From: an uncultured virus (IMG/VR IMGVR_UViG_3300047274_000159)
Lineage: Duplodnaviria > Heunggongvirae > Uroviricota > Caudoviricetes
Length of the DNA stretch: 64,000 nt
Direction: 5' to 3' (one strand)
Virus record (IMG/VR): IMGVR_UViG_3300047274_000159
Location: 1-64,000 of that record
A program made the position numbers and the translations under genes. Numbering within the stretch: the stretch's first letter is position 1; each line of letters begins with the position of its first letter. Below, piece after piece: positions 1-35,600 of the stretch. The notes under the pieces are model-generated. The model saw only the letters and a list, made by a program, of their open reading frames with translations, was not told the DNA's origin and ran no database searches.

Positions 1-1480
1 GATAGGTAGTGGCGCTGACTTTAAAAGGAACTACCCTATAAACATATTTTTTTGCTTTTACGTTTCGAATCCTGTCAAAATCAAGTAACTGTATTTGCAC
101 ATCTATCCGGAACCAATCTACCATACCGTCTTTGATATTTTCGCCTTTTAGACTCTTTACACAATATTCAGATGCCGAGACGATGTACTTGATTATTTCG
201 GTGATCTTTGAACCCTGAGGAAATTGTATTTCTCGCTGCTTGGGATCAATGGTCATCCTATCTCGTACGATACGACCGGTCTTTTCATCTATTATGTCAC
301 CTTCAAGTTTAAAATTATAGTTTCCGCCAGATGTCTCTGAAAATCCCATACTGGCGCTGCCTATGACTCCTTGGCCAAAAGTTCCAGCTGCGGCTTCTCT
401 GGCTTGGACTGCTATCCTCTGTGTCACAGGCTTTTTAGGATCTGCCATGGCTTTTAATACTTCGGTCGATAATCCGCCGTCTAATCCTACTTTATCCGAG
501 GCATCGATAGGAAACACTATTTCGTATAGGTCTGGTATTTCTGCTTGTTTTTTGTTAACGTTTTCTAATTGCAACTGATTCAACGCATTGATAAGACTCT
601 GCGGTCCGGAAGATAAGACTTCAGACACTTTCATTCCTGTTAATTTTAAATCTGTAGGAATATTATTAATAACATCGCTGAAACCTTGATGATGAAAAGG
701 TGCTGCTTCAACTTTATATTTGCTGCCACCCTCATTAACAGTGAACTCAGCTTTGGTAATTTTAATTGTAAAATATTTTGCCAGATCTTCTGTAGAGCCA
801 AAAACAGCGCCGCTGTCTTGATATCCTAAAAATTCTAGTTTGAGCAGATACGGAGTATCATTAAGGTAGGACGGATACCCGGCACCGATGGCCGCTGCCT
901 GTAGACTTTGTAAAAATAATCCTAATGAATAAGGTTCATAGACTTCAAAAGAAAAACTAGAAACGTTGGTATTACCCGTCTTTGCTGAGCCACCAAGCTG
1001 TGCCTGTAGTACAAAATTATCTACAAAATATTCAGGTGTTCCGTAGGCAGTGGCCACACGCTTTTCGTCAAATCTTCCTGCAGAAGAAAATACTACATTT
1101 TTTAAAGCAGACGGATTTCCTCTATAGGTAGTAGGATCATTAAACTGATTTGGTTCGAGGCAGCTCAGAGTCCATAAAGGTACATAGGAAGCGAATTGCT
1201 CTAATACATTCTCATAGGGAGGTCCTGAACCAGCAGTGGTTTTTCCCGACAAGGTTTTGTAAAGACCAAAAGTAGTTACCGCTAGGGTCTTTCCGGAATC
1301 TTGAACAACATTGTCAATGTTCTTTGGATCAATGGTTGCGGTAGCAGCAGACACCTGTCCAGTAATAGCCTGTGCATTACCTTGTAAAATATTTGGAACT
1401 GTAGGTATGTCAAGTATTGGTCTGCCAGAGGGCATCAAAAGATTGCCTACTTTCTGGCCTATGTCTCTGAATATCGACAC
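1..1480 (-). CDS. Probable baseplate hub-type structural protein, partial (runs off the left edge)
   Basis: Not in the ORF track. A GTG at 1480, immediately after the TAA of the gp53-like gene, opens a frame reading MSIFRDIGQKVGNLLMP...YENVLEQFASYVPLWTLSCLEP. It follows gp48/gp53-like baseplate genes; product inferred from context. Confidence 0.55.
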   Translation of the reverse strand, partial: MSIFRDIGQKVGNLLMPSGRPILDIPTVPNILQGNAQAITGQVSAATATIDPKNIDNVVQDSGKTLAVTTFGLYKTLSGKTTAGSGPPYENVLEQFASYVPLWTLSCLEPNQFNDPTTYRGNPSALKNVVFSSAGRFDEKRVATAYGTPEYFVDNFVLQAQLGGSAKTGNTNVSSFSFEVYEPYSLGLFLQSLQAAAIGAGYPSYLNDTPYLLKLEFLGYQDSGAVFGSTEDLAKYFTIKITKAEFTVNEGGSKYKVEAAPFHHQGFSDVINNIPTDLKLTGMKVSEVLSSGPQSLINALNQLQLENVNKKQAEIPDLYEIVFPIDASDKVGLDGGLSTEVLKAMADPKKPVTQRIAVQAREAAAGTFGQGVIGSASMGFSETSGGNYNFKLEGDIIDEKTGRIVRDRMTIDPKQREIQFPQGSKITEIIKYIVSASEYCVKSLKGENIKDGMVDWFRIDVQIQLLDFDRIRNVKAKKYVYRVVPFKVSATTY

Positions 1481-1481
1481 G

Positions 1482-1781
1482 TTAGACTCCGATAAACTTT
1501 TCTAAGTTTGATTTTTTAGGACAATATATAGTAACCCCGGGTTCAAAATCATATATGGGATCTCTAAGAACTTCCATGTTCCTTTGAACAAATACCCACC
1601 ACAGATTAGAATTACCGTATAAGTCATAGGCTAAAAGATCTGGTCTATGTTTATACTGTCCCTCTATAACGTATTGAAAATCGTCTGCCTCGGCCGGTAC
1701 TGGTCGTATAGCCAATAGTTCTAGATAAAGATTATTTTGCTTGGTTGTAAAATACGGTGATGTTTTTTTGTAGACTGCCAT
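1482..1781 (-). CDS. gp53: Baseplate wedge protein, T4 gp53-like (LysM-like)
   Basis: Motif YKHRPDLLAYDLYGNSNLWWV...N...DPIYDFEPG is typical of gp53/LysM wedge proteins. Confidence 0.75.
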   Translation of the reverse strand: MAVYKKTSPYFTTKQNNLYLELLAIRPVPAEADDFQYVIEGQYKHRPDLLAYDLYGNSNLWWVFVQRNMEVLRDPIYDFEPGVTIYCPKKSNLEKFIGV

Positions 1782-1782
1782 A

Positions 1783-2886
1783 TTATAGATATCCTACGGT
1801 TTTTCCAGCAGCATAATCATTCAGAGAGAATCTACGCAACTTTGTTCTGTTATAGATAGGCGCAACAGTAACAGAGATCGTGCTCATGATCGGCACCCAG
1901 GTGTTAGCACCGTCTAGAGAACATTTGATATAATTCACATCATCTTTGAAATCTACGCTAAAACTTTTTATGATAACCGGAACTGAATTAAAGACTCTAG
2001 CGCCATAGCCCGTGAGATTACAAATGATCGGAGGATTTCCTACATTAGGTCCTTGACCAAAAAACATCTTGGTAGCTGTTCTTAAAAAGGTGGTGCCCTG
2101 TATCCAGTACTGAGCATCTAGCTCTGTTTCAACTGAAAACTCTCCGCTGATCTGTATGTCATCTATCTGACTGTTCTTATATGCATAGAAAGGTTGTAGA
2201 TTATGTATAGGATCTATCTGGGTATAATTGGCTTTACTGGCAACGGTGATGGTAGGGAGATAAGGCCAAACAAAACCGTTGGTCGCCGACAGTCTTGAAA
2301 AGGCTGTGCCGAACAAACCAAAATTACAATTGAGTTTTACTCTCCAGTCATCGGCTGTGCCCGGTTTTACTTCGACAAACGCACCTTGCTGATTAAATAA
2401 TTCTGCACCACTAGGTAGGTTTTTTCCTCTAGCCATACTTAAAAGATTGTTTATCATTCCAGCCGCAGAAGATATGCCTGTGGCAAGTTGAGCTAGGCCG
2501 CCACCTAAACCACCACTGGCCAAACCTAATTTGTTCAAACTAGCACCTATAGCAGCTCCAGCATTGCTGACCGCTCCGGCAACCCCGCCTAGTGATCCCA
2601 AAGCACTACTTCCCCCTGTGGCGTTTGATGCTAGGCTCTGTATTGGACTTCCTACGCCCTTTAATGCTGATGCAGCATTGCCCATCATAGTATTAGCGGC
2701 TGCGGTGGCTCCGTTGAGTCCGCTGCCGATTTCGCCCGAGAGTCTTCCCACAGTGGCATCTACGTTGGCTTTAAGAGCCGAAGTATCTGCTGCTGCCAGA
2801 GATGACTGCGCAGACTGTGCTGCTGCTCCTACTTGCGACGAAACGCTGTTGACTAATTTAGCCAGAGGATTGATTGATAACGCCAT
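1783..2886 (-). CDS. Baseplate/tail-tube initiator-like protein (gp48/gp54-type) with Ala/Gly/Ser-rich N-terminus
   Basis: C-terminal tube-like domain (WPYLPTITV...GNPPIICNLTGYG...VPVIIKSFSVDF); lies upstream of the gp53-like gene; late promoter motif upstream. Confidence 0.55.
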   Translation of the reverse strand: MALSINPLAKLVNSVSSQVGAAAQSAQSSLAAADTSALKANVDATVGRLSGEIGSGLNGATAAANTMMGNAASALKGVGSPIQSLASNATGGSSALGSLGGVAGAVSNAGAAIGASLNKLGLASGGLGGGLAQLATGISSAAGMINNLLSMARGKNLPSGAELFNQQGAFVEVKPGTADDWRVKLNCNFGLFGTAFSRLSATNGFVWPYLPTITVASKANYTQIDPIHNLQPFYAYKNSQIDDIQISGEFSVETELDAQYWIQGTTFLRTATKMFFGQGPNVGNPPIICNLTGYGARVFNSVPVIIKSFSVDFKDDVNYIKCSLDGANTWVPIMSTISVTVAPIYNRTKLRRFSLNDYAAGKTVGYL

Positions 2887-2912
2887 TTTGACAAAATTTT
2901 CCTAGTTTACAC

Positions 2913-2918
2913 TATTTA
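2913..2918 (-). promoter_or_regulatory. T4-type late promoter core (TAAATA)
   Basis: TAAATA on the minus strand upstream of the baseplate operon; the same motif precedes most structural operons. Confidence 0.6.
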
Positions 2919-2967
2919 TTCTTGACAAAATGTGCTACTATATTAACTATTGGAGAATACTGAGTAT

Positions 2968-3807
2968 ATGACAGAACAAAAAATAAAATACCTAACTAAC
3001 AAAGATTTACTAAGAGAAATACATCTAAGCAAAAATACCTTCTGTACCTTTACGGATCCGATCTACGCTGATTACGATATTATTCTTCCTAATCTAGCCA
3101 AGATCAATATTAGAACCATAGCCGAAGCTAAAAGAAATAAAGCAGCTAAACTTAGTAAGCAGGCACACGAAGCGGCTCAAAAAACCGGCAAAAAATCATC
3201 AGCCAAGGAACACGAAATAGACTATAAGAAAATTTCCAAACACGATCTAGTGTTTAGAATCATGACATTCGAACATATTCCGCTGGCTCCTGGTCGTAAG
3301 AAAACTCTTAAGAATACCGCAGACAGCCACGATAAAGTAAACTTTCCTCCTTTCCAACACTGGAAGTTTGATGATAACGATAACCTAATCTGTGTAGGTA
3401 AGAGCCACTGGAAGGGAGATCTAAACACAGGATCGTTTAACAAAGAACACGGTCAGATGACCAACAATCTAGCTCGTATGTTCCTAAAACTCTGCGAACG
3501 ATATGCTACTAGAGGCAACGTTCGAGGCTACACCTACAACGACGAAATGCGTGGACAGGCTATTCTACAGTTAACTCAGATAGGCTTACAGTTCGATGAA
3601 TCTAAATCCGATAATCCTTTTGCTTATTATACCGCTGCTGTTACTAATTCATTCGTGCGAATTATCAACATCGAAAAACGCAACCAAAACATTCGAGACG
3701 ACATTCTTGAAATGAATGGTATGAACCCAAGTTGGACCAGACAAAACTCGGGCAGTGGAGCAGGTGCTGTGAATACCGCTCCTGTAGATGGTAGTGATTG
3801 GGATTGA
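2968..3807 (+). CDS. gp55: Late-transcription sigma factor, T4 gp55-like
   Basis: YLTNKDLL N-terminus, N.RGYTYNDEM, QFDESKSDNPFAYYT...NSF.RII..EK motifs; gp55-gp47-gp46 synteny. Start taken at ATG 2968 (track starts at TTG 2950). Confidence 0.85.
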   Translation: MTEQKIKYLTNKDLLREIHLSKNTFCTFTDPIYADYDIILPNLAKINIRTIAEAKRNKAAKLSKQAHEAAQKTGKKSSAKEHEIDYKKISKHDLVFRIMTFEHIPLAPGRKKTLKNTADSHDKVNFPPFQHWKFDDNDNLICVGKSHWKGDLNTGSFNKEHGQMTNNLARMFLKLCERYATRGNVRGYTYNDEMRGQAILQLTQIGLQFDESKSDNPFAYYTAAVTNSFVRIINIEKRNQNIRDDILEMNGMNPSWTRQNSGSGAGAVNTAPVDGSDWD

Positions 3808-3832
3808 TATAGTCAATTAATAGTGTTATAAT
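3804..3832 (+). promoter_or_regulatory. Sigma70-type early promoter of gp47/gp46
   Basis: TTGATA(3804-3809)-N17-TATAAT(3827-3832) with extended -10 TG; ATG 5 nt downstream. Confidence 0.7.
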
Positions 3833-3837
3833 ATATT

Positions 3838-4848
3838 ATGAATCTTTTCAAAAAAGTAGCCTGTTTTACTGACATACACTTTGGGTTGAAATCAGGTAGT
3901 CGTACTCACAATATCGATTGTGAAGAGTTTGTAAAATGGTTTTGCGAAACTGCTCGAGCAGAAGGCGCAGAAACCTGTATCTTCTTAGGTGATTGGCATC
4001 ACAATCGCAGTACCACTGACGTGAGTACTATGAACTATACTGTGTCAAACTTAGAAAGACTAAGTCAAAATTTTGAGAAAGTGTATTTTATTCTAGGAAA
4101 CCACGACTTGTTCTATAAGGACAAACGTGAAATTAACTCTATCGAGTTTATGCGGCTGTTTCCTAACATCGTTCCCATCAAAGATACACTTACTCAGGGC
4201 AATGTCACTATCATGCCCTGGCTAGTAGCCGACGAATGGAAAGATATTCCTAACATTAAAAGTCGATATATCTTTGGACATCTAGAATTACCTAGCTTTT
4301 ACATGAATGCCATGGTACAGATGCCCGATCACGGTACTATTCAACGTTCTCACTTTGTCAATCAAGACTATGTGTTTACAGGGCACTTTCACAAACGACA
4401 ACAGGCTGCTAATATCGTCTATATAGGCAATGCATTTCCGCACAATTATGCAGACGCAGGTGACGACGAGCGTGGCATGATGATCTTAGAATGGGGTGGT
4501 GTGCCAGAGTATCGAACTTGGCCCGGTCAGCCTGTTTATAGAATATACAAGTTAAGCCAGATCATCGATCGCCCAGACGAGTTACTCAAAGAAAAAATGC
4601 ACTGTCGGGTGACCATAGATCTGCCTATCACTTTCGAAGAAGCAAATTTCATCAAAGAGCAGTTTATTCCGCAGTATAATCTGCGAGAATTGATGTTGAT
4701 TCCAGAAAAAGTAGAAATTGAAACTTCACAGGTAGCGATAGATATTCAATTTGAATCAGTAGACACGATCGTTCTGAATCAGATCAATGCTATCGAAAGC
4801 GATACCTATGACAAGGGTCTATTAGTAGACATTTACAAAGAATTATGA
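3838..4848 (+). CDS. gp47: Recombination endonuclease subunit, Mre11/SbcD-like (T4 gp47)
   Basis: Metallophosphoesterase motifs DIHFG, GDWHH, GNHD, GHLE, GHFH. Confidence 0.92.
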   Translation: MNLFKKVACFTDIHFGLKSGSRTHNIDCEEFVKWFCETARAEGAETCIFLGDWHHNRSTTDVSTMNYTVSNLERLSQNFEKVYFILGNHDLFYKDKREINSIEFMRLFPNIVPIKDTLTQGNVTIMPWLVADEWKDIPNIKSRYIFGHLELPSFYMNAMVQMPDHGTIQRSHFVNQDYVFTGHFHKRQQAANIVYIGNAFPHNYADAGDDERGMMILEWGGVPEYRTWPGQPVYRIYKLSQIIDRPDELLKEKMHCRVTIDLPITFEEANFIKEQFIPQYNLRELMLIPEKVEIETSQVAIDIQFESVDTIVLNQINAIESDTYDKGLLVDIYKEL

Positions 4849-6623
4849 TCAAGATAAAGAATCTAACTGTAAGAAATTTCATGAGCGTGGGTAATCAAAC
4901 CCAGGCTATCGACTTTGACCGTGGGCAGTTGACCTTGGTCCTAGGTGAAAATTTAGATCTAGGAGGTGATGACTCTGGCGCCCGCAACGGAACAGGCAAA
5001 ACTACAATCATCAACGGACTGAGCTATGCTATCTACGGTCAAGCCCTAACCAACATCAAGCGCGATAATCTTATCAATAAGATCAACAGCAAAGGTATGT
5101 TGGTCACTGTGACCTTTGAAAAAGACGGAGTTGAGTATCACATCGAACGTGGACGCAAACCTAATCTTTTAAAATTTAGTATCAACGGAGAAGAACAGGA
5201 ACTTAAAGACCTAGACGAGTCGCAGGGAGACAGCAGAGAAACACAGAAGTCCATCGAAGAAGTGTTTTCTATGAGCCACGAGATGTTCAAACATTTAGTT
5301 GCTCTCAACACTTATACCGAACCGTTCCTTAGTATGAAGGCTGCGGATCAAAGATCTATCATTGAGCAGCTATTAGGAATCACACAGCTCAGTGAAAAAG
5401 CAGAAAACCTCAAAGAACAGATCAAACATACCAAAGATGCTATCTCAACCGAAAACACAAGGATTGAAACTGTAAAGGCATCCAACGATCGTATACAACA
5501 AAGCATCGAAGCTCTAGAGAGAAAGCAGAAGATCTGGGAAGATCAAAAAGAGTCAAGTCTTGAAAATCTAAGAAAAAGCATAGACCGTCTCAGTAACATA
5601 GACATCGATCAAGAAATACTAGATCAAAAAAATCTCTCGGATTGGTCAAAAAACAAAAAAGAGAAAGACAGTCTTACTGCATTGATCGCTAAACAGACAT
5701 CGACATTGGACAAAGAACAGCGTATGCTAGAAAAGCTAGAAAAAGAACTGGTCTTATTAGCTGAACATAAGTGCCATGCCTGCGGTCAGGACATACACGA
5801 TCATAAACATGAAGATATGGTCACTGCTAAATCCAAACAAGTCGAAGATAGTCTAGCTTTGATCAAAGAATATGAAACAGAACTAGCTACACTCAACGAA
5901 GCTCTCGGACTGCTGGGAGATCTCGGTGCATGTCCTACTGTGATTTATAACAGCCTAGAGGAAGCACTGAATCATAAGAACACTCTAGAAAGTCTAGAAA
6001 GAGACCTTAGTATCAAAGAAGCAGAATCTAATCCCTACGGTGAACAGATCGACGAGCTACGCAAAACTGCCGTACAAGAAATCGACTGGAATTCTGTCAA
6101 CGAATTGACTAGAGTTAAAGATCATCAAGAATTCCTGCATAAATTGTTGACCAACAAAGATAGTTTTGTCCGTAAGCGCATCATTGACCAGAATCTAGCA
6201 TTTTTAAATCAGCGTCTAACCTATTATCTAGACAAGATCGGACTACCCCATATCGTAGAATTCCAGAATGATCTAACTGTGACCATTACACAACTAGGAC
6301 AAGACCTAGATTTCGATAATCTGAGTCGAGGTGAACGTAATAGATTAATCCTAAGTCTAAGCTGGGCATTTAGAGATGTATGGGAAAATTTATATACCAG
6401 CATCAATCTACTGTTTATCGACGAACTAGTAGACTCGGGCATGGACGCCAGTGGTGTCGAATCAAGTATCGCTGTACTCAAGAGGATGACTAGAGAACGT
6501 GATAAGAATGTTTTCTTGATCAGCCATCGAGACGACCTGACAAATCGAGTAAATCATGTATTAAAGGTCATCAAAGAAAACGGATTTACCAGTTACAGTA
6601 ACGATGTGGAGATATTAGATTGA
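4845..6623 (+). CDS. gp46: Recombination ATPase subunit, Rad50/SbcC-like (T4 gp46)
   Basis: Walker A NGTGKTT, coiled coil with Zn-hook CHAC, signature LSRGE, Walker B LFIDE, ISH motif. Confidence 0.93.
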   Translation: MIKIKNLTVRNFMSVGNQTQAIDFDRGQLTLVLGENLDLGGDDSGARNGTGKTTIINGLSYAIYGQALTNIKRDNLINKINSKGMLVTVTFEKDGVEYHIERGRKPNLLKFSINGEEQELKDLDESQGDSRETQKSIEEVFSMSHEMFKHLVALNTYTEPFLSMKAADQRSIIEQLLGITQLSEKAENLKEQIKHTKDAISTENTRIETVKASNDRIQQSIEALERKQKIWEDQKESSLENLRKSIDRLSNIDIDQEILDQKNLSDWSKNKKEKDSLTALIAKQTSTLDKEQRMLEKLEKELVLLAEHKCHACGQDIHDHKHEDMVTAKSKQVEDSLALIKEYETELATLNEALGLLGDLGACPTVIYNSLEEALNHKNTLESLERDLSIKEAESNPYGEQIDELRKTAVQEIDWNSVNELTRVKDHQEFLHKLLTNKDSFVRKRIIDQNLAFLNQRLTYYLDKIGLPHIVEFQNDLTVTITQLGQDLDFDNLSRGERNRLILSLSWAFRDVWENLYTSINLLFIDELVDSGMDASGVESSIAVLKRMTRERDKNVFLISHRDDLTNRVNHVLKVIKENGFTSYSNDVEILD

Positions 6624-6850
6624 CCACTGAAAGTCATGATAAAATGATCGAAGCATTTCAGCAGTATTTTAAATGGCAAGATCGTTTTGAGTACAGAAAT
6701 TCAGATGAGGCAGGCATCAAAGCTAGGTATTGGCTATCAGAAATACGTAACGAGGCATCAAAAAGGCGAGTAGAAATACAAGAAAAAAGAAAGCAACGTA
6801 AGAAATCCAGAAAAGGCATGCTAGGCAGACCCCCCAAGGTAACTAAATGA
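6620..6850 (+). CDS. Small basic nucleic-acid-binding protein, Hc1 histone-like type
   Basis: F....AGIKAR..L.E......RR.EIQEK pattern resembles Hc1-family N-terminal helices; K/R-rich tail with AT-hook-like GRPPK. Confidence 0.45.
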   Translation: MTTESHDKMIEAFQQYFKWQDRFEYRNSDEAGIKARYWLSEIRNEASKRRVEIQEKRKQRKKSRKGMLGRPPKVTK

Positions 6851-7285
6851 GTGCTGTGGACATATCAAAATCAACCCGTAGAAGAAATACCCGAAGGCTA
6901 TATTGGCTTTGTTTATCTTATTACAAATCTCACCACCGGACAGAAATACATAGGCAAAAAACTAGCACAGTTTAAGCGCACAAAACCACCTCTCAAAGGC
7001 AAAAAACTTAAAAGAAGATCAGTAGTTGAAAGCGATTGGCGCGATTACTGGGGTTCTTCTGATAGGCTACAAGCAGACGTCCAAGCATTAGGTCCGGAAA
7101 ACTTCACAAGAGAAATACTTTACCTTTGCAAATCCAAGGCAGAAATGTCATATCTAGAGGCTAGAGAGCAGTTTGAACGCAGAGTTTTAGAAACAGATGA
7201 CTATTATAATGGCATTATAAACGTCAGAGTCGGCGGATCAAACATACTTAGACAGCGCCTCGAAGAACATAAAAAGGCAAAATAA
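6851..7285 (+). CDS. Single-domain GIY-YIG endonuclease
   Basis: GFVYLITNLTTGQKYIGKK, later conserved E (YLEAREQF) and YYN; no appended DNA-binding domain. Confidence 0.85.
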   Translation: MLWTYQNQPVEEIPEGYIGFVYLITNLTTGQKYIGKKLAQFKRTKPPLKGKKLKRRSVVESDWRDYWGSSDRLQADVQALGPENFTREILYLCKSKAEMSYLEAREQFERRVLETDDYYNGIINVRVGGSNILRQRLEEHKKAK

Positions 7286-7289
7286 CAGC

Positions 7290-7646
7290 GGTTTTTGGCT
7301 AGCGCAGGCCCAAATTCGTGCGCTCTATACCTGGTCAATCGTGGTCACAGGGACGGAAAACCTTGCCGCTAAGGTGCTCAACCACTACCCTTCGGGATGA
7401 AGATCGCTTGTAAGCCCTGCGATTTGGTTGTTTGAATAGGATAAAAAGGCAAAAAGAGCAGGGAAAACCTGCACGTCTACAGCAGTGATAGCGTATTGTT
7501 GTAGGCCGCCGTTGTGTAAAGACGTGGCTCGAGGTACCGGACAACCGCCTCTGTAATGCCATAACGCTGTGTGACTTGCCGAACTCGGATAATGTACTCT
7601 TGGCCCTTAGCTGGGCTAAGTGTGACCATTAAAATCTGGATAATGC
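7290..7646 (+). ncRNA. Putative large structured non-coding RNA of unknown family
   Basis: Dense nested stems with G-U pairs that work only on the + strand (e.g. 7475-7487/7494-7506, 13 bp with 4 G-U; 7599-7606/7613-7620), long-range pair 7341-7349/7621-7629, C(UUCG)G loop; no credible ORF. Ends are approximate. Confidence 0.6.
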
Positions 7647-7651
7647 TAAAC

Positions 7652-7734
7652 TTTCCGCTTCGCGGAAAAAATCCTAAGAAAGAAAAAATTGCGTTGAGCG
7701 TAAGCGAAAACGCAAAACGAGCGCAAGCTCGTTT
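7652..7734. repeat. Cluster of three inverted repeats (hairpins)
   Basis: TTTCCGC-TTC-GCGGAAA (7652-7668); TTGCGTT...GC-GTAA-GC...AACGCAA (7689-7715); AAACGAGC-GCAA-GCTCGTTT (7715-7734), the last followed by a T-rich tail and possibly a terminator. Confidence 0.75.
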
Positions 7735-7736
7735 CT

Positions 7737-7746
7737 TAAATAAATA
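7737..7746 (+). promoter_or_regulatory. Late promoter core (tandem TAAATA)
   Basis: TAAATAAATA just upstream of the 7759 ORF. Confidence 0.55.
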
Positions 7747-7758
7747 AACAATATTGGA

Positions 7759-9282
7759 TTGAAAATTAATAATATCCTTGTTGAAAATCATCTGACGGAG
7801 TCTCGTAGAGTACTAGTGGAGTCTTGTCAAGGTCTTGATCAACAACAACGTAAGATTGTCGAGGGGATTGTTAAAGAACTACAGCCTTTAATCGAAGCTA
7901 GTCTAACACCTCAACAGATACAGGGCATATTTGGTGGTGTGGAAAAAGCAGCCACTGATGCTGGAGGAAACAGGACTCTATTAGGCAAAGGAGTTGATGT
8001 TGCCAAGAAAGCAGATGCGATCATCAATAACATCGGTAAGTGGTTACAGGACACCACACCAGTTAAGGCTTTTGATCAAAAGTTTGAAGATCTCAAGGCC
8101 ACTATCAGCAAGAAGTTTCCTGATCTATCACAGAAAGTCGCAGGTATGGGAGAATGGGCCAAGGCCAATCCCGGAAAAACTGCGGCCATTGTCGGTGTAT
8201 TAACAGCCATCGCTTCGTTGGCAGGTGGACCTGTCGGTGGCGCTATCGCTGGTCAAGTACTGAGAGGTTCTGTAGAACTGCTCAAGGGCGAAAAACTTTC
8301 CACAGCCATTGGTAAAGGTGTTAAGACCGCAGTATTTGGTTATCTATCCGGCAAGGCATTTGAAATGCTGGGCGAATTCGCTGAAGGTATTAGGATTAAA
8401 TCTCTTCCATTTGGTCCTGAGAATGCAGGATTTGAACAGGTATCGTTTGGTGCTACTAAAACAATCACTGCTCCAGGCATGGAGTGGACACGAGAAATAC
8501 AGGGCATCGATATTATCGTAGATCCTGAAATGGCCAGTGCTGTGAGATCAGCAGAAACCCTATTAAGGATGGGCGGTGACGCTGCCAACGAAGGTTTTGA
8601 GCAGTTAGAAAATGTAGCCAAGATCATCAACAGCGCAGAATATAAACAAGAAATCGCAAGTGCCCTAGAAATCAGTAGACAAGAACTTATTAAAAATGAT
8701 TCGCTGCTTAATTTTATCAAAGCAGCCAAAGAAGGACTACAGGCAGTGTCTCAGGGTGCTGTGGCTGCTGCTGGTGTCGCTGGCGGCAAAGAAAAGAAAG
8801 AGAGTGTTTACCTACAATCTAGACCTCTCAGTGAAGGGCAAGTATATTTGGTATTCAATAGGATTGCTGCAGAACAGCTCAACGAAGGTCCCATGGACAT
8901 GGTTAAAGGTGCAGCTAACTGGGTTTCTAAGAAAGCAGGAAATCTAACCACAAAAATCACAGCAGACAAACTAAATTCTGCTTGGCAGAAAGCAGGCAGT
9001 CCTACAGATTCGGATCAGCTAGCAGATTTTCTTGCCAAACAAAACATTGACACTGAAATGATCAAGAGTGTCTATGCTTCAATGAAACTACCAGCACCCG
9101 GCTCAGGCAAGGCTCTAGCAGATCTAGAAACAGTAAAACAACTGGTAGCAAAATTACCTGTGGACCGCAAGGCAAGATTGTTAAAATACCTATTAGGTGG
9201 CGCCAAAGGTATGAAACAATCAGCAGAAATCGCCGCAGACAGAGAAAGACTGTTACCGCAGGCCGCAGAGGACATCAAATGA
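7759..9282 (+). CDS. Hypothetical protein, probable internal head/ejection protein
   Basis: 507 aa; N-terminal LVE/LTE motifs resembling gp21 cleavage sites; Gly-rich hydrophobic hairpin; late promoter; TTG start. Confidence 0.5.
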   Translation: MKINNILVENHLTESRRVLVESCQGLDQQQRKIVEGIVKELQPLIEASLTPQQIQGIFGGVEKAATDAGGNRTLLGKGVDVAKKADAIINNIGKWLQDTTPVKAFDQKFEDLKATISKKFPDLSQKVAGMGEWAKANPGKTAAIVGVLTAIASLAGGPVGGAIAGQVLRGSVELLKGEKLSTAIGKGVKTAVFGYLSGKAFEMLGEFAEGIRIKSLPFGPENAGFEQVSFGATKTITAPGMEWTREIQGIDIIVDPEMASAVRSAETLLRMGGDAANEGFEQLENVAKIINSAEYKQEIASALEISRQELIKNDSLLNFIKAAKEGLQAVSQGAVAAAGVAGGKEKKESVYLQSRPLSEGQVYLVFNRIAAEQLNEGPMDMVKGAANWVSKKAGNLTTKITADKLNSAWQKAGSPTDSDQLADFLAKQNIDTEMIKSVYASMKLPAPGSGKALADLETVKQLVAKLPVDRKARLLKYLLGGAKGMKQSAEIAADRERLLPQAAEDIK

Positions 9283-10262
9283 AAATCAATGAACTATTAA
9301 ACGAAAGCCAACAACAAGAACTGTCAGTGTTACAGGAAGGCCCTATCCTTAACAAGATTGGTCAAGGTGTAGGCAAGGTTGCAGGAACTGCTGCCAAGGC
9401 GGTGGGATCTGTGGCCGGCGGTGTTGCCGGACTAGGATCAGCTTTTATGAAAGGCTATCGTGGAGGCAAATCTACCGTGGCCGCAGCCGGTGACGATGAT
9501 GAAGCAGACACAGCCGCAGATACGGGCAATACAGCTCAAAGCGGAGGTACTACTAAGACAGCCGCAACCGGTGGTAGTAGCAGTAGTGGAGCAGCACCAG
9601 CTGCTGGGGGAGGTAGTGCAGCACCTGCAGCCGATACTGGAACAGCATCTGCACCAAAAGCTACCAAAGCTGCACCTAAGAGCACATTTGGTAAACTAAC
9701 CACAGCAGCCGCAGGCGGCGCTGATGCTGCTGCCGGCAGAGTAGAACCAACTTTAGACGAACCTAAATCTGATACAGCATATGCTCAGGCACAAAAAGCA
9801 GTGTCGTCATTGGCACCTGAACAGAAAAAAGAAATCGTAACCATGCTCCAGGCTGATCCAAAAGTTAAAGCAGCCATGGAAAGACCCGCTGCTAAGAAGC
9901 CAGCAGCCAAACCTGCAGCAGCACCAGCGGCCGATGCTGGTGCAAGTGCAATGGGACAAATGGTCGGACAGTTAGCCAAAGGGGGAGCAGAACAACCTAA
10001 CACGATGGCAAATGCTCCGGTAAGTAAAACTAATACTGCTAAACCAGGTAATCCAAATGCAGCACCAGCTGCTAAACCTACGACAGCACCTGCGGCAGCA
10101 GAGCCCAAGCCAAATAAAAGAAAACCTGCCAAGAAACCAGCAGGTCCTAGTCAGGCCGAAATCGATGCAGATCGCGCAAGAATTATGGGACCAACTTCTG
10201 ACAGCATTGTTAGAACCAAAGCTAGTCTAACTGAAAACTTTAGTCTGTTCAGAAGAAGTTAA
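9279..10262 (+). CDS. Hypothetical Ala/Pro/Lys-rich protein, probable internal head protein
   Basis: 327 aa, low complexity; MKINELLNE...LQEG N-terminus with I/L-x-E motifs; start overlaps the upstream stop codon. Confidence 0.5.
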   Translation: MKINELLNESQQQELSVLQEGPILNKIGQGVGKVAGTAAKAVGSVAGGVAGLGSAFMKGYRGGKSTVAAAGDDDEADTAADTGNTAQSGGTTKTAATGGSSSSGAAPAAGGGSAAPAADTGTASAPKATKAAPKSTFGKLTTAAAGGADAAAGRVEPTLDEPKSDTAYAQAQKAVSSLAPEQKKEIVTMLQADPKVKAAMERPAAKKPAAKPAAAPAADAGASAMGQMVGQLAKGGAEQPNTMANAPVSKTNTAKPGNPNAAPAAKPTTAPAAAEPKPNKRKPAKKPAGPSQAEIDADRARIMGPTSDSIVRTKASLTENFSLFRRS

Positions 10263-10492
10263 AAGAAAGGTAAACCTGTTTTCTTAGTAGTTTCAAGATT
10301 GTCTTTGATGATCTCGCCTATGATGTTTCTTTCTTCATAGCTGAGCATCATAGCATCAGAATAGCTCATACCTCGCATATACCAACAGATCTTGAGAAGA
10401 TCTTTTTTGATAGACAGCGCCTCTTTTTCTATTTGTTTTACAAATTCAAGGATCTCAGACTGAGGCAGTGTTAAGACCCTTTGGCGAAAAAA
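10259..10492 (-). CDS. gp51-like/tail-assembly-chaperone C-terminal segment, probably expressed by -1 frameshift from the gp26-like gene
   Basis: Reads RQRVLTLPQSE...CWYMRGMSYSDAMMLSYEER...TGLPFF; overlaps the end of the upstream gene in the -1 frame at a slippery site; no convincing start of its own. Confidence 0.6.
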   Translation of the reverse strand, partial: FFRQRVLTLPQSEILEFVKQIEKEALSIKKDLLKICWYMRGMSYSDAMMLSYEERNIIGEIIKDNLETTKKTGLPFF

Positions 10493-11337
10493 TTTGTCTG
10501 ATCCATACTTACAGTCACAGTCCAGTGATGTTTGCATTCTGCGCATTCAACATCCTGCGCTTTGAGTTCCATAAGTTCTTTCATATCTCTGATATGATCA
10601 TTGACCGTGTTAAACACAGTACTGTCTGCATTTTCCATAAAGTCTAAAATGATCTGTTGATCAGTCACATCACCATCCGGTGTGGAGATTCGTGTGATAC
10701 AGCCTGCTACTACATCAACAGTAAGTTCAGTTAACTTGACAAAACTTTCTCCAAATCGTTCAATTTTTTCTTCGTCACTCATGTTAGGATCATTAACCAC
10801 TTCGAAGATTTTTTGTTGTTCTAGAGTTTTGATAGCAGTCTTGGTAATTTCTTTGTAGCTGTAGGGTCTTAAATGGATAGTCAGCGGACCTACAGATAAT
10901 TCAGAAGCATATCTAAACTTATAAGTTTCTTCAAGATAACCGAGAAGATTCAGTTGATAATCATTATAATGACTACAGCTAGGACAGGTACTGCTAATTT
11001 CCATGCTTTCGCCGTAGGTAGCGATCCTAATAGCGATAAGACATGCATCTAGATCGATGCTGGGCATGAGCCAAGGTTCTTTGATCGCTGGAATACAGCT
11101 CTTGATAACTTCTACAGTAGATTGACCGTTCATGAGAGCATCGGGAGTTTTAAACATCAACTCATCTTTGGCTGTCATGGCATACACAGCGTATTCTTCG
11201 TTTTGACTCACATCTAAAGAACCAGGCGGATAAAAGTTCCCCTGGCTAGGTAATCTCATATATAACTTTGGTTGTCTAAAATAATTTGCTAGAGGATTAG
11301 ACACCCTCTTTACTTGCTGATTGGATTGGTCCATCAT
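10471..11337 (-). CDS. gp26: Baseplate hub assembly protein, T4 gp26-like
   Basis: NPL..YFRQPK.Y..LPS, MTAKDEL..K, D.DA.LIAIR.A.YGE, CPSC and CAEC Zn-type motifs, terminal NFF. Confidence 0.75.
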   Translation of the reverse strand: MMDQSNQQVKRVSNPLANYFRQPKLYMRLPSQGNFYPPGSLDVSQNEEYAVYAMTAKDELMFKTPDALMNGQSTVEVIKSCIPAIKEPWLMPSIDLDACLIAIRIATYGESMEISSTCPSCSHYNDYQLNLLGYLEETYKFRYASELSVGPLTIHLRPYSYKEITKTAIKTLEQQKIFEVVNDPNMSDEEKIERFGESFVKLTELTVDVVAGCITRISTPDGDVTDQQIILDFMENADSTVFNTVNDHIRDMKELMELKAQDVECAECKHHWTVTVSMDQTNFFAKGS

Positions 11338-32615: not shown

Positions 32616-35600
32616 ATGGCTGAATTTAAATTAGGTAGAATAAAATTTGTATGGAAAAATGATTGGGTTACAGGTACCACTTATTACAAAGATGATATCG
32701 TAGCCTATGGCGGTAAAACATATCTTTGTGTAGTGGGACATACCGCTGCCGCAGATTTTTATACTGACCTAGATAATGTTCCTTCTAAATGGAATCAGTT
32801 CAGTGACGGATTAGATTGGAAAGGCAATTGGACATCAACCACACTATACAAAGAAAACGATATCGTAAAATATGGCGGTTATGTTTATATTTGTAATAAT
32901 GGACACACTAGCTCATCTACTCTAGAAGCTAACCAGGCGAACTGGGATCTACTTGCCGAAGGTTTTGACTGGAAAGGATCTTGGGCAAACGCAACTACAT
33001 ATAAGGTAAATGACCTAGTCAAGTATGGCGGTTTGGTCTATATCTGCAACACAGCACATACATCAGCGGCCACAGTTGCCCTAGGATTAGAAGCCGACCA
33101 ATCTAAATGGGATGTATTTAGTAGAGGTGTAGATTGGAAAGGATCTTGGTCTATATCTACTAGATATAAAGTAGGCGATTTAGTCAAAAATGGCGGAAAC
33201 ACCTACGTATGTAATCAAGGACATACTTCTGCTGCTACAGAAGCTCTGGGATTAGAAGCAGATCAATCTAAATGGGATTATTTTAATCAAGGTATCGATT
33301 ATAAAGGAACTTGGTCAGTAACTTCGCGTTATAAACATAACGATGTAGTAAAATACGGTGGCGGCACTTGGATTTGTATTACACCACATACTTCTACATC
33401 TAGCTTTGTTACAGACAATGCATACTGGAATCAGTTTGTTGAAGGTATAGAATTTGAAGGCGACTGGCTTTCAGGCACAACATATCAACCGGGCGATATC
33501 GTTCGATACGGTGGTAACAGTTACATTGCTAAAAATACTCATGTTGCGGGATCGACTCCGCCTGCAACTCCGTTTGATTGGGATTTATTTTCCACAGGAT
33601 TTAGATTACAGGGCGATTGGAGCTCATTAACTACTTACAAAGTTGGAGAGGTAGTTAGAAATCACGGCTTCACATATGTGGCCACAGCTGATAGTACAAA
33701 TCAAAGACCTCCAAATGCTTCATATTGGAGCAAATTAAATGAAGGTATTGATTGGGAAGGCGACTGGGTTTCGTCACATGTTTATGTGTTAGGCGATGCT
33801 GTCAAGTTCGGAGCCAATTCTTATATCTGTGTTCAGGCTCATACATCAACAACAGGATCTGATAGACCGGATAACGATATCACAGGTACATACTGGAACT
33901 TGCTGACCGCAGGTAATGAAGAAAGTGTACTAACTACCATCGGTGATCTAGTTTATTATAGCGGAAGCGGCCCTACACGTTTGCCTATCGGTGACGAGGG
34001 TCAGGTTCTTACAGTAGAATCTGGTTTACCAACTTGGAAATTTTTTGGTAAGGTAAAAAATGTTTGGTATGTCGCACCGCACGGCATTGACGAACCAGCA
34101 CCTACATACGGATCAACCGTAGACAAGCCGTGGGCTAGTGTACGCTATGCCTGCGAACAAATAGAACATGGTACAGAATATCCACAGGCAGCATATCTAT
34201 TAAGACAAAATAGAACATTTATTCAGCGAGAAATCACTAAATGGGTAGAGTATCAGATCGCAGGCGGCTCTGGAATCTGGTCTGGATTTGTCAATGACAG
34301 TGCTGCTCTGTGCGAAAGAGATATGGGATTAATCGTAGATGCAATAGTTTACGATCTTACACATACCGGAAATGTAAAATCTAGAACAGCAGCACTGTCG
34401 TATTTTGACGAAGCAGGTGCATTAGAAACATTTATTTCCGACGAAGAAGAACAACTTGTTGCAGCTATCAATTACGGTGTGAGTTTAATTGGCAGCGTGT
34501 TGAGCAATACCGCTCCTGCAGCAAATTATCAAGCATTACAAGGTGTTGCAGTCGGAGATAGAATCAAGCAAATTATTGATTCGAACTACACAGCCGAAAC
34601 AGGTTCACTTGATATCTGCGAAGATCTAGCAGCTATTATTACTAATGCAGTCACAGCAGGCAGTATCACAGGCATGCCTAAGGAAGATCTGCCTAACTAT
34701 ACAATTAATGTTAAAACTGGTCAATATTACGAAGTTTTACCAATTAGGGTTCCTTCCGGAACAGCAGTTGTCGGTGATGAATTACGTTCTTCAAGAATTA
34801 GTCCTGCAGGAAAGTTAGTTGAAGACAATGATAAGGCTAAATCTGTAGCGGTCCTAACCCATCTAAAATCTATTACCGATGAAATAGTAACTAATACCGC
34901 AGTCACTCCAACAACAGGCAATACAGCTACACAAGATACGACCAGTCAGAACGAGGGTAATGTTGGAAGCTCTACAGCAGTAACCAGTATTGTAAACAAT
35001 GTTACAGAAATCAAAGATATCCTAACCAACGGATTAGGATCTGTAGATGCATTTGTAATTCCAAATCCTACTAACTGGGGTTCTTCATTAACTGATACTG
35101 CATACGCATCTACAGGCAATGCTACAGGTGCAACATCTACCTATGACAATGCTAGAGCACAGATTCTTGCCAACACTAACTTTATCAAAGCTGAAATCAC
35201 AGCATGGATCGCAGTACAGGTAGCAGGTAACATAGCACCGTTTACCACATCGTTTACCTACGATGCAGCGGCCTGCGCTAGAGATGTTGGATATGTTTTA
35301 GATGCTATTCGTTATGATTTAACCTACGGTGGCAATACACAAACAAGAATCGCCGCTGATGCATATTATAGCTACGGTGTAGCCACGTTTGGCAACGGCG
35401 AAAAAGAAGAAACACTGGCCGCATATGCAAGACTTAAAACAGTAGTTGGTCAGGTCATTACAGAAGCTTCGGTAACAGTTTCTGCAGGTAATGCAGAAAC
35501 ACAAGATGTCAGCGGTACAGCAGGTAATACTTCAGCTAAAAACTTTGCTGAAGAGCGTGTTCAGGAAATTATCAACACAATCACTGCCGACGGTACCTTA

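Follow-up and report, generated by a model that had tools for sequence, protein, structure and literature searches.

A conserved structured RNA of about 450 nt, containing the Polynucleobacter-1 motif and two matching boxes, lies beside a GIY-YIG nuclease gene in an uncultured freshwater T4-like phage

We analyzed a stretch of 64,000 nucleotides (nt), here called the window, that makes up positions 1 to 64,000 of the 76,697-base uncultured virus record IMGVR_UViG_3300047274_000159 and derives from an uncultured freshwater T4-like phage. The 473 nt between a small GIY-YIG nuclease open reading frame (ORF) and the next plausible gene (7286-7758; gene start at 7759) encode a real plus-strand structured RNA that is under selection at the RNA level. 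We consider it probable that the product of this gap is a structured RNA of about 450 nt that is autonomous and acts in trans, and that the nuclease is a separable neighbor. An initial annotation, made from the sequence alone, had proposed that the RNA scaffolds or guides the GIY-YIG protein and had named an independent large noncoding RNA as an alternative; it is the alternative that the evidence presented here favors.

The initial annotation described the 473 nt after the GIY-YIG stop codon as the longest noncoding stretch, which holds for the window. The record's other long gaps without an ORF of at least 110 amino acids (aa) are occupied by packed ORFs of 95 to 108 aa or else by a 99-aa ORF together with an open frame of 493 aa, so that this gap is the window's longest stretch without a plausible gene. 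It does contain ORFs of 58 aa on the plus strand and of 75 and 104 aa on the minus strand. We rejected a protein-coding gap, given that the 58-aa and 104-aa ORFs have no Pfam match and that the ORFs in the gap differ among relatives. No transfer RNA or transfer-messenger RNA was found in the window, and nhmmer searches of the 76.7-kb record with four profiles found this copy of the RNA only.

The 50 aligned phage RNAs are conserved over about 450 nt, beginning at the GIY-YIG stop codon and closing with a terminal hairpin, and the following elements can be placed within this span:

7286-7735, plus strand: the whole structured RNA, about 450 nt, its putative ends placed by conservation.
7287-7292 with 7365-7370, plus strand: pseudoknot PK1, formed with the loop of hairpin P3 and lying outside the Rfam model.
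7297-7433, plus strand: the 5' domain, helices P1 to P6, matched by cmscan to Rfam RF01718 (Polynucleobacter-1).
7458-7472, plus strand: hairpin P7; both partners change in 4 of 4 counted pairs, with 91% pairing.
7475-7506, plus strand: the 13-bp stem-loop P8; both partners change in 12 of 13 pairs, with 90.8% pairing.
7489-7493 with 7565-7569, plus strand: pseudoknot PK2, formed by the P8 loop; 95.6% paired, 4 of 5 pairs covary.
7511-7515 with 7541-7545, plus strand: pseudoknot PK3, formed with the P10 loop; 89.5% paired, 3 of 5 pairs covary.
7525-7528 with 7558-7561, plus strand: helix P9, which encloses P10; 4 of 4 pairs covary, 95.5% paired.
7531-7535 with 7547-7551, plus strand: hairpin P10; 100% paired.
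7600-7619, plus strand: hairpin P12; 6 or more of the 7 pairs form in 48 of 48 RNAs (control, 3 of 48).
7652-7668, plus strand: hairpin P13, closed by a UUCG-type loop and located where the RNA varies in length; seen in most aligned RNAs.
7689-7715, plus strand: stem P14, with an inner conserved GAGCG...GCGAAA loop-hairpin; many pair types.
7716-7733, plus strand: the terminal 7-bp hairpin P15, with a GCAA loop and followed by UUUCUU; 95.4% paired, 6 of 7 pairs covary.

We built alignments of 31 and then of 50 nonredundant phage RNAs and derived the helices from a scan for covarying column runs together with RNAalifold. Across the 99 pairs counted in the 50 phage RNAs, 85.6% are paired, against 73.8% after shuffling. 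Changes on both sides are seen at 64 pairs (45.1 ± 2.6 in shuffles) and in 593 individual cells (188 when shuffled), and the covariation score is 0.336 against 0.136, with none of 500 shuffles scoring as high and values of at most 0.099 when the partners are slid by 1 to 3 columns. The plus strand folds better than its shuffles (z score, -2.17; 3 of 100 shuffles fold as well), and the minus strand does not (z score, -0.24). P3, P12, P13, and P14 were rechecked sequence by sequence, MAFFT having misaligned such helices: P3 forms in 50 of 50 RNAs (33 in the control), P14 retains at least 5 of its 6 outer pairs in 46 of 50 (20 of 50 in the control), and the count for P13 is weak, at 22 of 50 against 6 of 50. 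The third pair of P12 illustrates the range of replacements, occurring as UA 22 times, as CG 10 times, and as AU, GU, and UG 5 times each.

Many of these helices had been drawn in the initial annotation. The 50 RNAs confirm eight of them, namely, 7301-7306/7319-7324, 7360-7375, 7379-7384/7425-7430, an invariant C(UUCG)G arm, 7402-7407/7419-7424, 7458-7472, 7475-7487/7494-7506, and 7531-7551, and a hairpin that had been placed at 7599-7620 corresponds to the strongly retained P12. Two long-range pairings proposed with them have to be given up. In 7341-7349/7621-7629 only an invariant UCACA/UGUGA core pairs, and the outer positions are unpaired in 21 to 41 of the 50 RNAs; taken jointly with 7510-7516/7560-7566, this pairing has a covariation score of 0.090, the same as the shuffled value of 0.090. 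Both clash with the covarying pairings 7511-7515/7541-7545, 7525-7528/7558-7561, and 7489-7493/7565-7569.

The 5' domain scores 101.1 bits against RF01718 (gathering score, 37), with an E value of 1.1e-20 and an alignment that spans model positions 1 to 141 of 141, and it is the sole Rfam match in the whole 64 kb at curated thresholds. The initial annotation had been unable to match the RNA to group I/II introns, RNase P, transfer-messenger RNA, or transfer RNA; the Rfam scan places 7297-7433 in a known family. A permissive Rfam scan of 7100-7900, with E values of up to 10, gave nothing credible for 7434-7758 and returned one chance long noncoding RNA row below the cutoff. Within the domain, both-side changes affect 5 of 6 pairs in P1, 3 of 6 in P4, and 4 of 6 in P6, with P2 and P5 invariant. 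The PK1 column pair 4/94 occurs as GC 27 times, AU 17 times, and UA 3 times in the phage set.

In the literature that we searched, the Polynucleobacter-1 motif is named only by Weinberg et al. 2010 (Genome Biol 11:R31, PMC2864571), whose Table 1 enters it with "y" for RNA, "y" for cis-regulatory, and "?" for switch and places it in Burkholderiales and in fresh water or estuary. The supplements of that paper contain 16 representatives and a single RefSeq hit, in a Polynucleobacter genome. The window RNA shares P1 to P6 and the invariant junction sequences with the motif, and its habitat fits the one given in the table. The catalogued motif covers just the first third of the conserved RNA: absent from RF01718 are the 5' strand of PK1 (7287-7292) and the conserved 3' structure, about 300 nt long, that includes the twin boxes described below, and the 3' core is found with another 5' region in other phages. 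As to membership in the family, the score is well above the gathering value and the helices are kept, with compensatory changes, in relatives, whereas the position of a 5' leader was not found; the cis-regulatory guess of the 2010 paper is at odds with 15 of 50 loci, to which we return below.

The 3' core contains two boxes of 13 nt, each made up of a constant head and a 7-nt core that the two have in common:

7582-7594, plus strand: twin box B1 (AACUCGGAUAAUG), recognized by its mutual information with B2.
7633-7645, plus strand: twin box B2 (AAUCUGGAUAAUG), recognized by its mutual information with B1.

For the variable core positions, the highest mutual information is with the same position of the other box (0.74 for 7587~7638 and 0.84 for 7588~7639, followed by 0.52, 0.39, and 0.37), and the covariation is one of identity, not of complementarity. 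No third column has mutual information near the level of the twin positions, and a pairing of the boxes with other parts of the RNA was rejected on this ground. When the 7-mers were extracted by alignment column, B1 and B2 shared the same one in all 50 phage and intermediate RNAs (7 variants), in 11 of 20 RNAs from the genomic islands described below (18 of 20 for the first six letters), and in 5 of 7 RNAs from a lineage farther removed. Overall, 66 of 77 RNAs carry identical 7-mers, against 11.9 ± 2.8 (maximum, 25) when the second boxes are shuffled, and the first-box 7-mer comes in 16 variants among the 77. Within the window, only B1 and B2 match the box pattern perfectly, and copies or complements of the boxes are not enriched elsewhere in it (22 matches against 20.05 ± 3.98 expected). 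A pairing of B1 with a box termed A2, suggested by RNAalifold from the island alignment, was dropped because by-eye comparison does not bear it out. We infer that the twin boxes are two equivalent sites for one partner. The pseudoknotted fold would present them as equivalent sites that bind two copies of this partner, which might be a protein dimer or an element of nucleic acid present as a repeat, and bivalent binding would explain why the boxes are identical within an RNA yet different between lineages.

A search of viral contigs with a pattern of the invariant junction sequences yielded 47 loci, and all 20 of those that were scanned with Rfam are full RF01718 matches (83.8 to 122.1 bits). 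Similar patterns yielded 13 loci in species-representative genomes, 7 of them real RF01718 matches, and 96 stretches in metagenome contigs; a profile of the 5' domain recognizes 146 of the 156 fetched loci. Among the 116 loci with enough upstream sequence, 26 have no GIY-YIG gene, and 24 of these 26 are set in a different context, which consists of small integrative islands of freshwater Burkholderiales. Three of the island genome contigs are labelled as Limnohabitans and "Syntrophobacter" metagenome-assembled genome (MAG) contigs. A divergent DUF6641 (PF20346) gene lies 5' of the island RNA, several islands carry a 188- to 194-aa tyrosine recombinase of the Phage_integrase family about 0.5 kb 3' of it, and an AAA ATPase is found nearby. 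One island, L062 (positions 950-7049; similar in L057, L125, and L131), also has a 499-aa integrase, and its order is 499-aa integrase, DUF6641, 101-aa ORF, RNA, 194-aa catalytic-domain-only tyrosine recombinase, 226-aa AAA ATPase, and a 300-aa protein of no known family. A defense-system search of the island genes gave generic AAA matches only.

The island RNAs are strongly diverged and about 500 to 600 nt long. Their architecture is equivalent and includes all three pseudoknots, the order of elements being PK1, P1 to P6, a long stem with a loop that pairs downstream, PK3, P9/P10, P12, the twin boxes, and two terminal hairpins. In 20 island RNAs, 92.9% of pairs form, 41 of 92 pairs change on both sides (21.0 ± 2.4 when shuffled), and the covariation score is 0.259, against 0.137 when shuffled and at most 0.064 when slid. 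PK1 is 100% paired in this set, with 2 covarying pairs; the equivalent of PK2 is 99.3% paired, with 4 covarying pairs; and that of PK3, which in the phage set includes pair types such as CG 31/UA 18 and AU 23/GC 20, is 96% paired. Covariation in both the 50 phage and the 20 island RNAs bears out the multidomain plus-strand RNA under RNA-level selection that had been proposed by eye. A covariance model (R1) built from 46 phage RNAs over the span 7456-7597 and run with default filters missed all island and intermediate RNAs; its only matches were the window and, in L004, a P10 fragment of 23 nt (E value, 0.54). Because R1 gave no match, the 3' homology of the island RNAs rests on by-eye alignment together with the separate covariation count.

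Loci L193, L216, L219, L230, and L231 have, about 90 to 480 nt past the GIY-YIG stop codon, an RNA that keeps P10, P12, the terminal hairpins, and the twin boxes. The boxes are a further matched variant, GAAUAAU in both. The 5' region of these RNAs is different and shorter, so that the Polynucleobacter-1 motif looks like an optional module.

The 5' third of the window RNA is thus a member of the orphan Polynucleobacter-1 family, with PK1 tying the 5' end to the first domain, and the 3' two thirds are an uncatalogued core, made up of P7 to P15, PK2, PK3, and the twin boxes, that is common to RNAs of other aquatic T4-like phages and of freshwater Burkholderiales islands. Under the reading that we prefer, the RNA is probably made as the 3' end of a gp47-gp46-orf76-GIY-YIG transcript or from a promoter within the GIY-YIG gene; it would end at the terminal hairpin and act in trans. 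P15 is accordingly named here as the putative terminator of the RNA; a simple consensus scan did not call it as one. The GIY-YIG gene would be a separately exchangeable, long-standing occupant of the slot before the RNA. The genes concerned are as follows:

3838-4848, plus strand: Metallophos (gp47/Mre11-like) gene, assigned with Pfam.
4845-6623, plus strand: gp46/Rad50-like ATPase gene (Pfam AAA_23, 3.4e-11; SMC_N), the upstream synteny anchor.
6620-6850, plus strand: 76-aa basic ORF of no known family, from the ORF call.
6851-7285, plus strand: 144-aa GIY-YIG ORF, with its stop codon at 7283-7285.

Homologues of gp46 were found by tblastn 5' of the RNA in most phage-type loci. The 76-aa ORF had no match in Pfam, PHROGs, NCBIfam, or PADLOC searches, and its conservation is weak and confined to the N-terminal 40 aa in a subset of related loci. 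A 9.2-kb contig (L054) that is binned with a Polynucleobacter MAG carries the whole gp47-gp46-orf76-GIY-YIG-RNA block, with 81 to 88% protein identity to the window; the binning hints at Polynucleobacter as the host genus or else reflects misbinned phage DNA.

The 144-aa protein consists of a catalytic domain only, as the initial annotation had it: it matches Pfam PF19835 (SegE_GIY-YIG; 2.4e-36) with residues 3 to 123 against profile positions 1 to 123, as well as phrog_447 (1.1e-39), and in an AlphaFold2 (AF2) model only a short helix at residues 130 to 143 follows the catalytic domain. The model has a mean predicted local distance difference test (pLDDT) value of 81.3, with low values at about residues 121 to 130 and in a loop at residues 41 to 57, which is the basic insert that had been noted earlier. 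Foldseek ranks the I-TevI catalytic domain at the top (probability, 0.92; E value, 0.29), and structural alignment gives the following:

I-TevI catalytic domain (1ln0_B): VIA-align Z of 8.2, root mean square deviation of 2.6, 84 residues aligned.
GIY-YIG restriction enzymes specific for 5-hydroxymethylcytosine (5hmC): VIA-align Z of 7.0 to 7.3.
UvrC N-terminal domain: VIA-align Z of 5.5 to 5.6.

Sequence searches of the PDB gave no match at an E value of 1 or less with the single protein, and a profile gave nothing better than an E value of 0.2. An identity with T4 endonuclease II (DenA) found no support, EndoII not being among the PDB-profile or fold matches listed. Catalytic residues of GIY-YIG enzymes include the motif tyrosines, a glutamate, and an asparagine. 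Residues Y22, Y33, G35, E103, and N120 are invariant in 21 homologues of the window protein, and because these motif residues are invariant, the enzyme is probably active. The nuclease gave homing-endonuclease rows only in the defense-system search, and its secondary matches in PADLOC and PHROGs are homing endonucleases.

A homologue of the GIY-YIG gene ends 7 to 63 nt before the Rfam motif in 45 of the 47 viral loci, and gene and RNA are adjacent in 41 of 61 RNA clusters (phage-type, 37 of 39; intermediate, 4 of 7); 18 of the 61 are island contexts without a GIY-YIG gene upstream. A search that started from the protein identified at least 593 viral loci with GIY-YIG relatives. We fetched the best 80, of which 64 include 200 nt or more of downstream sequence; among these, 27 contain the RF01718 domain, 21 are similar in the 3' core only, and 16 have no similarity at an E value of 1e-3 or less. 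Most of the loci lacking RF01718 keep an ORF-poor gap of 430 to 640 nt, and 20 of them that were scanned contain no Rfam family.

Gene and RNA also part company in other ways. In L028 (2431-2946, plus strand) and L116 (1943-2458, plus strand) the GIY-YIG slot is filled by a 171-aa protein of PF24608, "phage putative PDDEXK endonuclease" (1.1e-25), which is a nonhomologous nuclease of the PD-(D/E)XK type occupying the same slot in one phage lineage. In L013 (3115-4925, minus strand) and in L139, which is nearly identical to it, the nuclease gene and the RNA are separated by two inserted genes, one encoding a 458-aa radical-SAM/B12-binding protein and the other a 151-aa ORF of no known family. 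Four genomes of Methylophilales phage Melnitz encode a 65%-identical GIY-YIG protein after the ribonucleotide reductase small-chain gene (nrdB), followed by a 148-nt gap, and the one of the four that was fetched (L049; MZ577097.1, 30449-30889) has no RF01718 match. Melnitz is a cultured phage, in which this short gene is annotated as hypothetical.

Similarity of the nuclease does not track similarity of the RNA. Over 124 loci, GIY-YIG identity to the window correlates with RNA similarity to the window with a rho of 0.05 for the 3' part and 0.08 for the 5' part, and gp46 identity does so with a rho of 0.68 and 0.61, respectively. Loci of group C combine a 72 to 80% identical nuclease with an approximately 51% identical gp46 and no RNA similarity detectable by blastn; other loci with a nuclease of 50 to 60% identity have a 52 to 59% identical gp46 and a clearly similar RNA; and some have an 88 to 91% identical nuclease yet an approximately 55% identical gp46 and a distant RNA type. 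Between the window and L036 the nucleases are 91% identical and the twin-box variants differ (GG versus GC). No segment of the alignments is hypervariable in the manner of a guide: variation is confined to hairpin loops and linkers, and among unpaired letters only the 7-nt cores of the twin boxes are lineage specific. Judged by these comparisons of sequence, the GIY-YIG gene is a conserved yet separable neighbor of the RNA, and its role as an obligate subunit is not supported.

Several points weigh against an autonomous RNA with a separable neighbor. The adjacency is very tight in the phage-type clusters, at 37 of 39, and lineages in which the RNA carries another 5' domain retain it. The PK1 strand lies within the last codons of 10 of 57 distinct GIY-YIG ORFs, so that RNA and messenger must share a transcript or the promoter must be internal; in the window the stop codon lies one base 5' of PK1. 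Simple scans found no plus-strand sigma-70 promoter just 5' of the RNA in the phage, nor in two islands. The neighboring enzymes lack their usual DNA-binding parts, whether the catalytic-only GIY-YIG protein, the 188- to 194-aa island recombinases, or the 171-aa PD-(D/E)XK protein. The structure that we tested was derived in part from the same alignment, and because the sequences are related, the shuffle controls overstate significance. The similarity correlations are rough, include a few truncated loci, and ignore kinship.

One alternative, which we consider unlikely, is that the GIY-YIG protein binds the RNA from its own 3' flank as a scaffold or guide, as TnpB does with reRNA and IscB with omega RNA. 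Such a ribonucleoprotein would fit the adjacency in viral loci and clusters, the pairing of gene and ORF-poor gap (about 430 to 640 nt) that persists in distant lineages, the overlap of ORF end and PK1 strand, and a catalytic-domain-only protein with a conserved basic loop and intact motif residues; a second type of nuclease in the same slot (L028 and L116) could be read the same way. It fits poorly with the 18 RNA clusters that have no nuclease neighbor, the Melnitz gene that has no RNA, the uncoupled similarities of nuclease and RNA, and L036, where a nearly unchanged protein goes with another box variant. Nor is there a hypervariable segment beside a constant scaffold in the alignments, and the box pattern occurs at chance level in the window. 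The confident RF01718 match and the occurrence of RNA and nuclease clade apart from each other had both been set down in advance as findings that would speak against a scaffold or guide for the nuclease. We hold it to be similarly improbable that the gene is, or once was, a free-standing homing-type nuclease cassette that spreads by gene conversion and sits by a highly conserved sequence in or near which it cuts, with the conserved RNA gene as a landmark only. The SegE-type Pfam family, the homing-endonuclease secondary matches, a fold nearest the I-TevI catalytic domain, the exchange of GIY-YIG independently of its flanks (discordance with both gp46 and RNA), the other nuclease fold in the slot of one lineage, and the position of the Melnitz homologue next to nrdB all agree with this idea. 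However, no empty site was seen, and the gene is present in 37 of 39 phage-type clusters, whereas patchy occurrence would be expected of a selfish element; known Seg and I-TevI enzymes have a C-terminal DNA-binding region that this protein lacks, and its invariant motif residues suggest a retained function.

The relation of the RNA to the gene that follows it is illustrated by two features of the window:

7739-7746, plus strand: T4-late-promoter-like motif AATAAATA, for the downstream gene and outside the RNA, named for its likeness to the consensus.
7759-9282, plus strand: 507-aa ORF of no known family, without a Pfam or PHROGs match.

AATAAATA resembles the consensus of T4 late promoters. 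The 507-aa ORF starts with TTG at 7759 in the window; contig L025, identical in other respects, carries 8 additional bases ahead of the gene, which there starts with ATG (window 7750-7762). Among 50 loci, an [A/T]ATAAATA motif no more than 45 nt past the terminal hairpin and a plus-strand ORF occur together in 26, the motif alone in 2, the ORF alone in 7, and neither in 15. In those 15 loci the RNA is complete and no plus-strand gene comes next; a converging baseplate-hub-like gene stands there instead (window copy, 10471-11337, phrog_150). Because these loci have no downstream plus-strand gene and a promoter-like motif intervenes elsewhere, the RNA is not the leader of a downstream gene. That it is a cis-regulatory 5' untranslated region, possibly a riboswitch, would agree with the entries in Table 1 of PMC2864571 and with the plus-strand ORF that begins within about 65 nt past the terminal hairpin in 33 of 50 loci, and we nonetheless regard it as highly improbable: besides the 15 loci that keep the complete RNA, a covarying terminal hairpin and the late-promoter-like motif separate RNA and gene, the downstream proteins are not conserved, and in the islands the next plus-strand gene is at least about 480 nt past the RNA. 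An RNA primer or R-loop replication origin, in which the transcript stays hybridized to DNA and primes replication, seems to us still harder to credit. Its only support is the presence of recombination and replication genes nearby and an A-rich linker. Selection acts on a compact fold that is pseudoknotted and in which many junction bases are invariant, none of which an R-loop needs; neither repeats nor an AT-rich unwinding tract was noted in 7286-7758, and the RNA is also found in islands with other gene sets.

Known systems offer partial parallels to the autonomous RNA that we favor and to its neighbor. In the OMEGA systems, IscB with HEARO/omega RNA and TnpB with reRNA, a large structured guide RNA lies beside a nuclease gene. 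The window locus is alike in that a large structured RNA is directly beside a small nuclease gene, with a 5' end that overlaps the ORF in some lineages, and in that the GIY-YIG protein lacks a nucleic-acid recognition domain of its own. It differs in having a GIY-YIG fold in place of RuvC/HNH, in the separate occurrence of RNA and nuclease, in the lack of a guide-like hypervariable segment and of visible transposon ends, and in having no Rfam match to HEARO over 7100-7900 at E values of up to 10. With Seg proteins and I-TevI the nuclease shares a SegE_GIY-YIG domain, conserved motif residues, a gene location between conserved genes, and exchange independent of the flanks; unlike them it has only 144 aa without a C-terminal DNA-binding region and is nearly fixed in its phage group, not patchy. 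GOLLD and ROOL are large ornate phage-associated RNAs whose function is not known. The window RNA resembles them in its several hundred nucleotides, its many helices and pseudoknots, and its occurrence on phages and mobile elements; it is smaller, and neither family scored in the Rfam scans. To our knowledge, twin boxes that covary by identity have not been described for GOLLD or ROOL.

Elsewhere in the window, a 327-aa low-complexity Ala/Pro/Lys-rich protein of no known family is encoded 3' of the 507-aa ORF (9279-10262, plus strand), and a single ORF of 2784 aa occupies 32616-40970 (plus strand).

A bolder and very unlikely extension would make the twin-box RNA a bivalent adaptor or guide, in which the shared, lineage-specific 7-nt specifier reads two identical half-sites or a repeated or duplicated nucleic-acid target and thereby recruits or aims the adjoining minimal enzymes. 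These enzymes may be the GIY-YIG or PD-(D/E)XK proteins in phages and the 188- to 194-aa tyrosine recombinase in the islands. In bridge RNAs, two loops must share a core. If true, a bivalent adaptor would be a new class of RNA-programmed DNA enzyme, distantly like bridge RNAs.

For the RNA as we read it here, Polynucleobacter-1, an Rfam orphan since 2010 that has been filed as a presumed leader of 141 nt, becomes an optional domain of an RNA of about 450 to 600 nt. The corrected boundaries and the pseudoknots can serve a better family model, and the locus carries a lesson for annotation, in that an RNA beside a nuclease need not mean an RNA-guided enzyme. The identity of the boxes within each RNA, together with their drift between lineages, is an unusual and testable sign of a two-fold partner. 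With three pseudoknots and a wide distribution among T4-like phages of aquatic habitats and the mobile islands of the likely hosts of these phages, the larger RNA joins the few large "ornate" RNAs.

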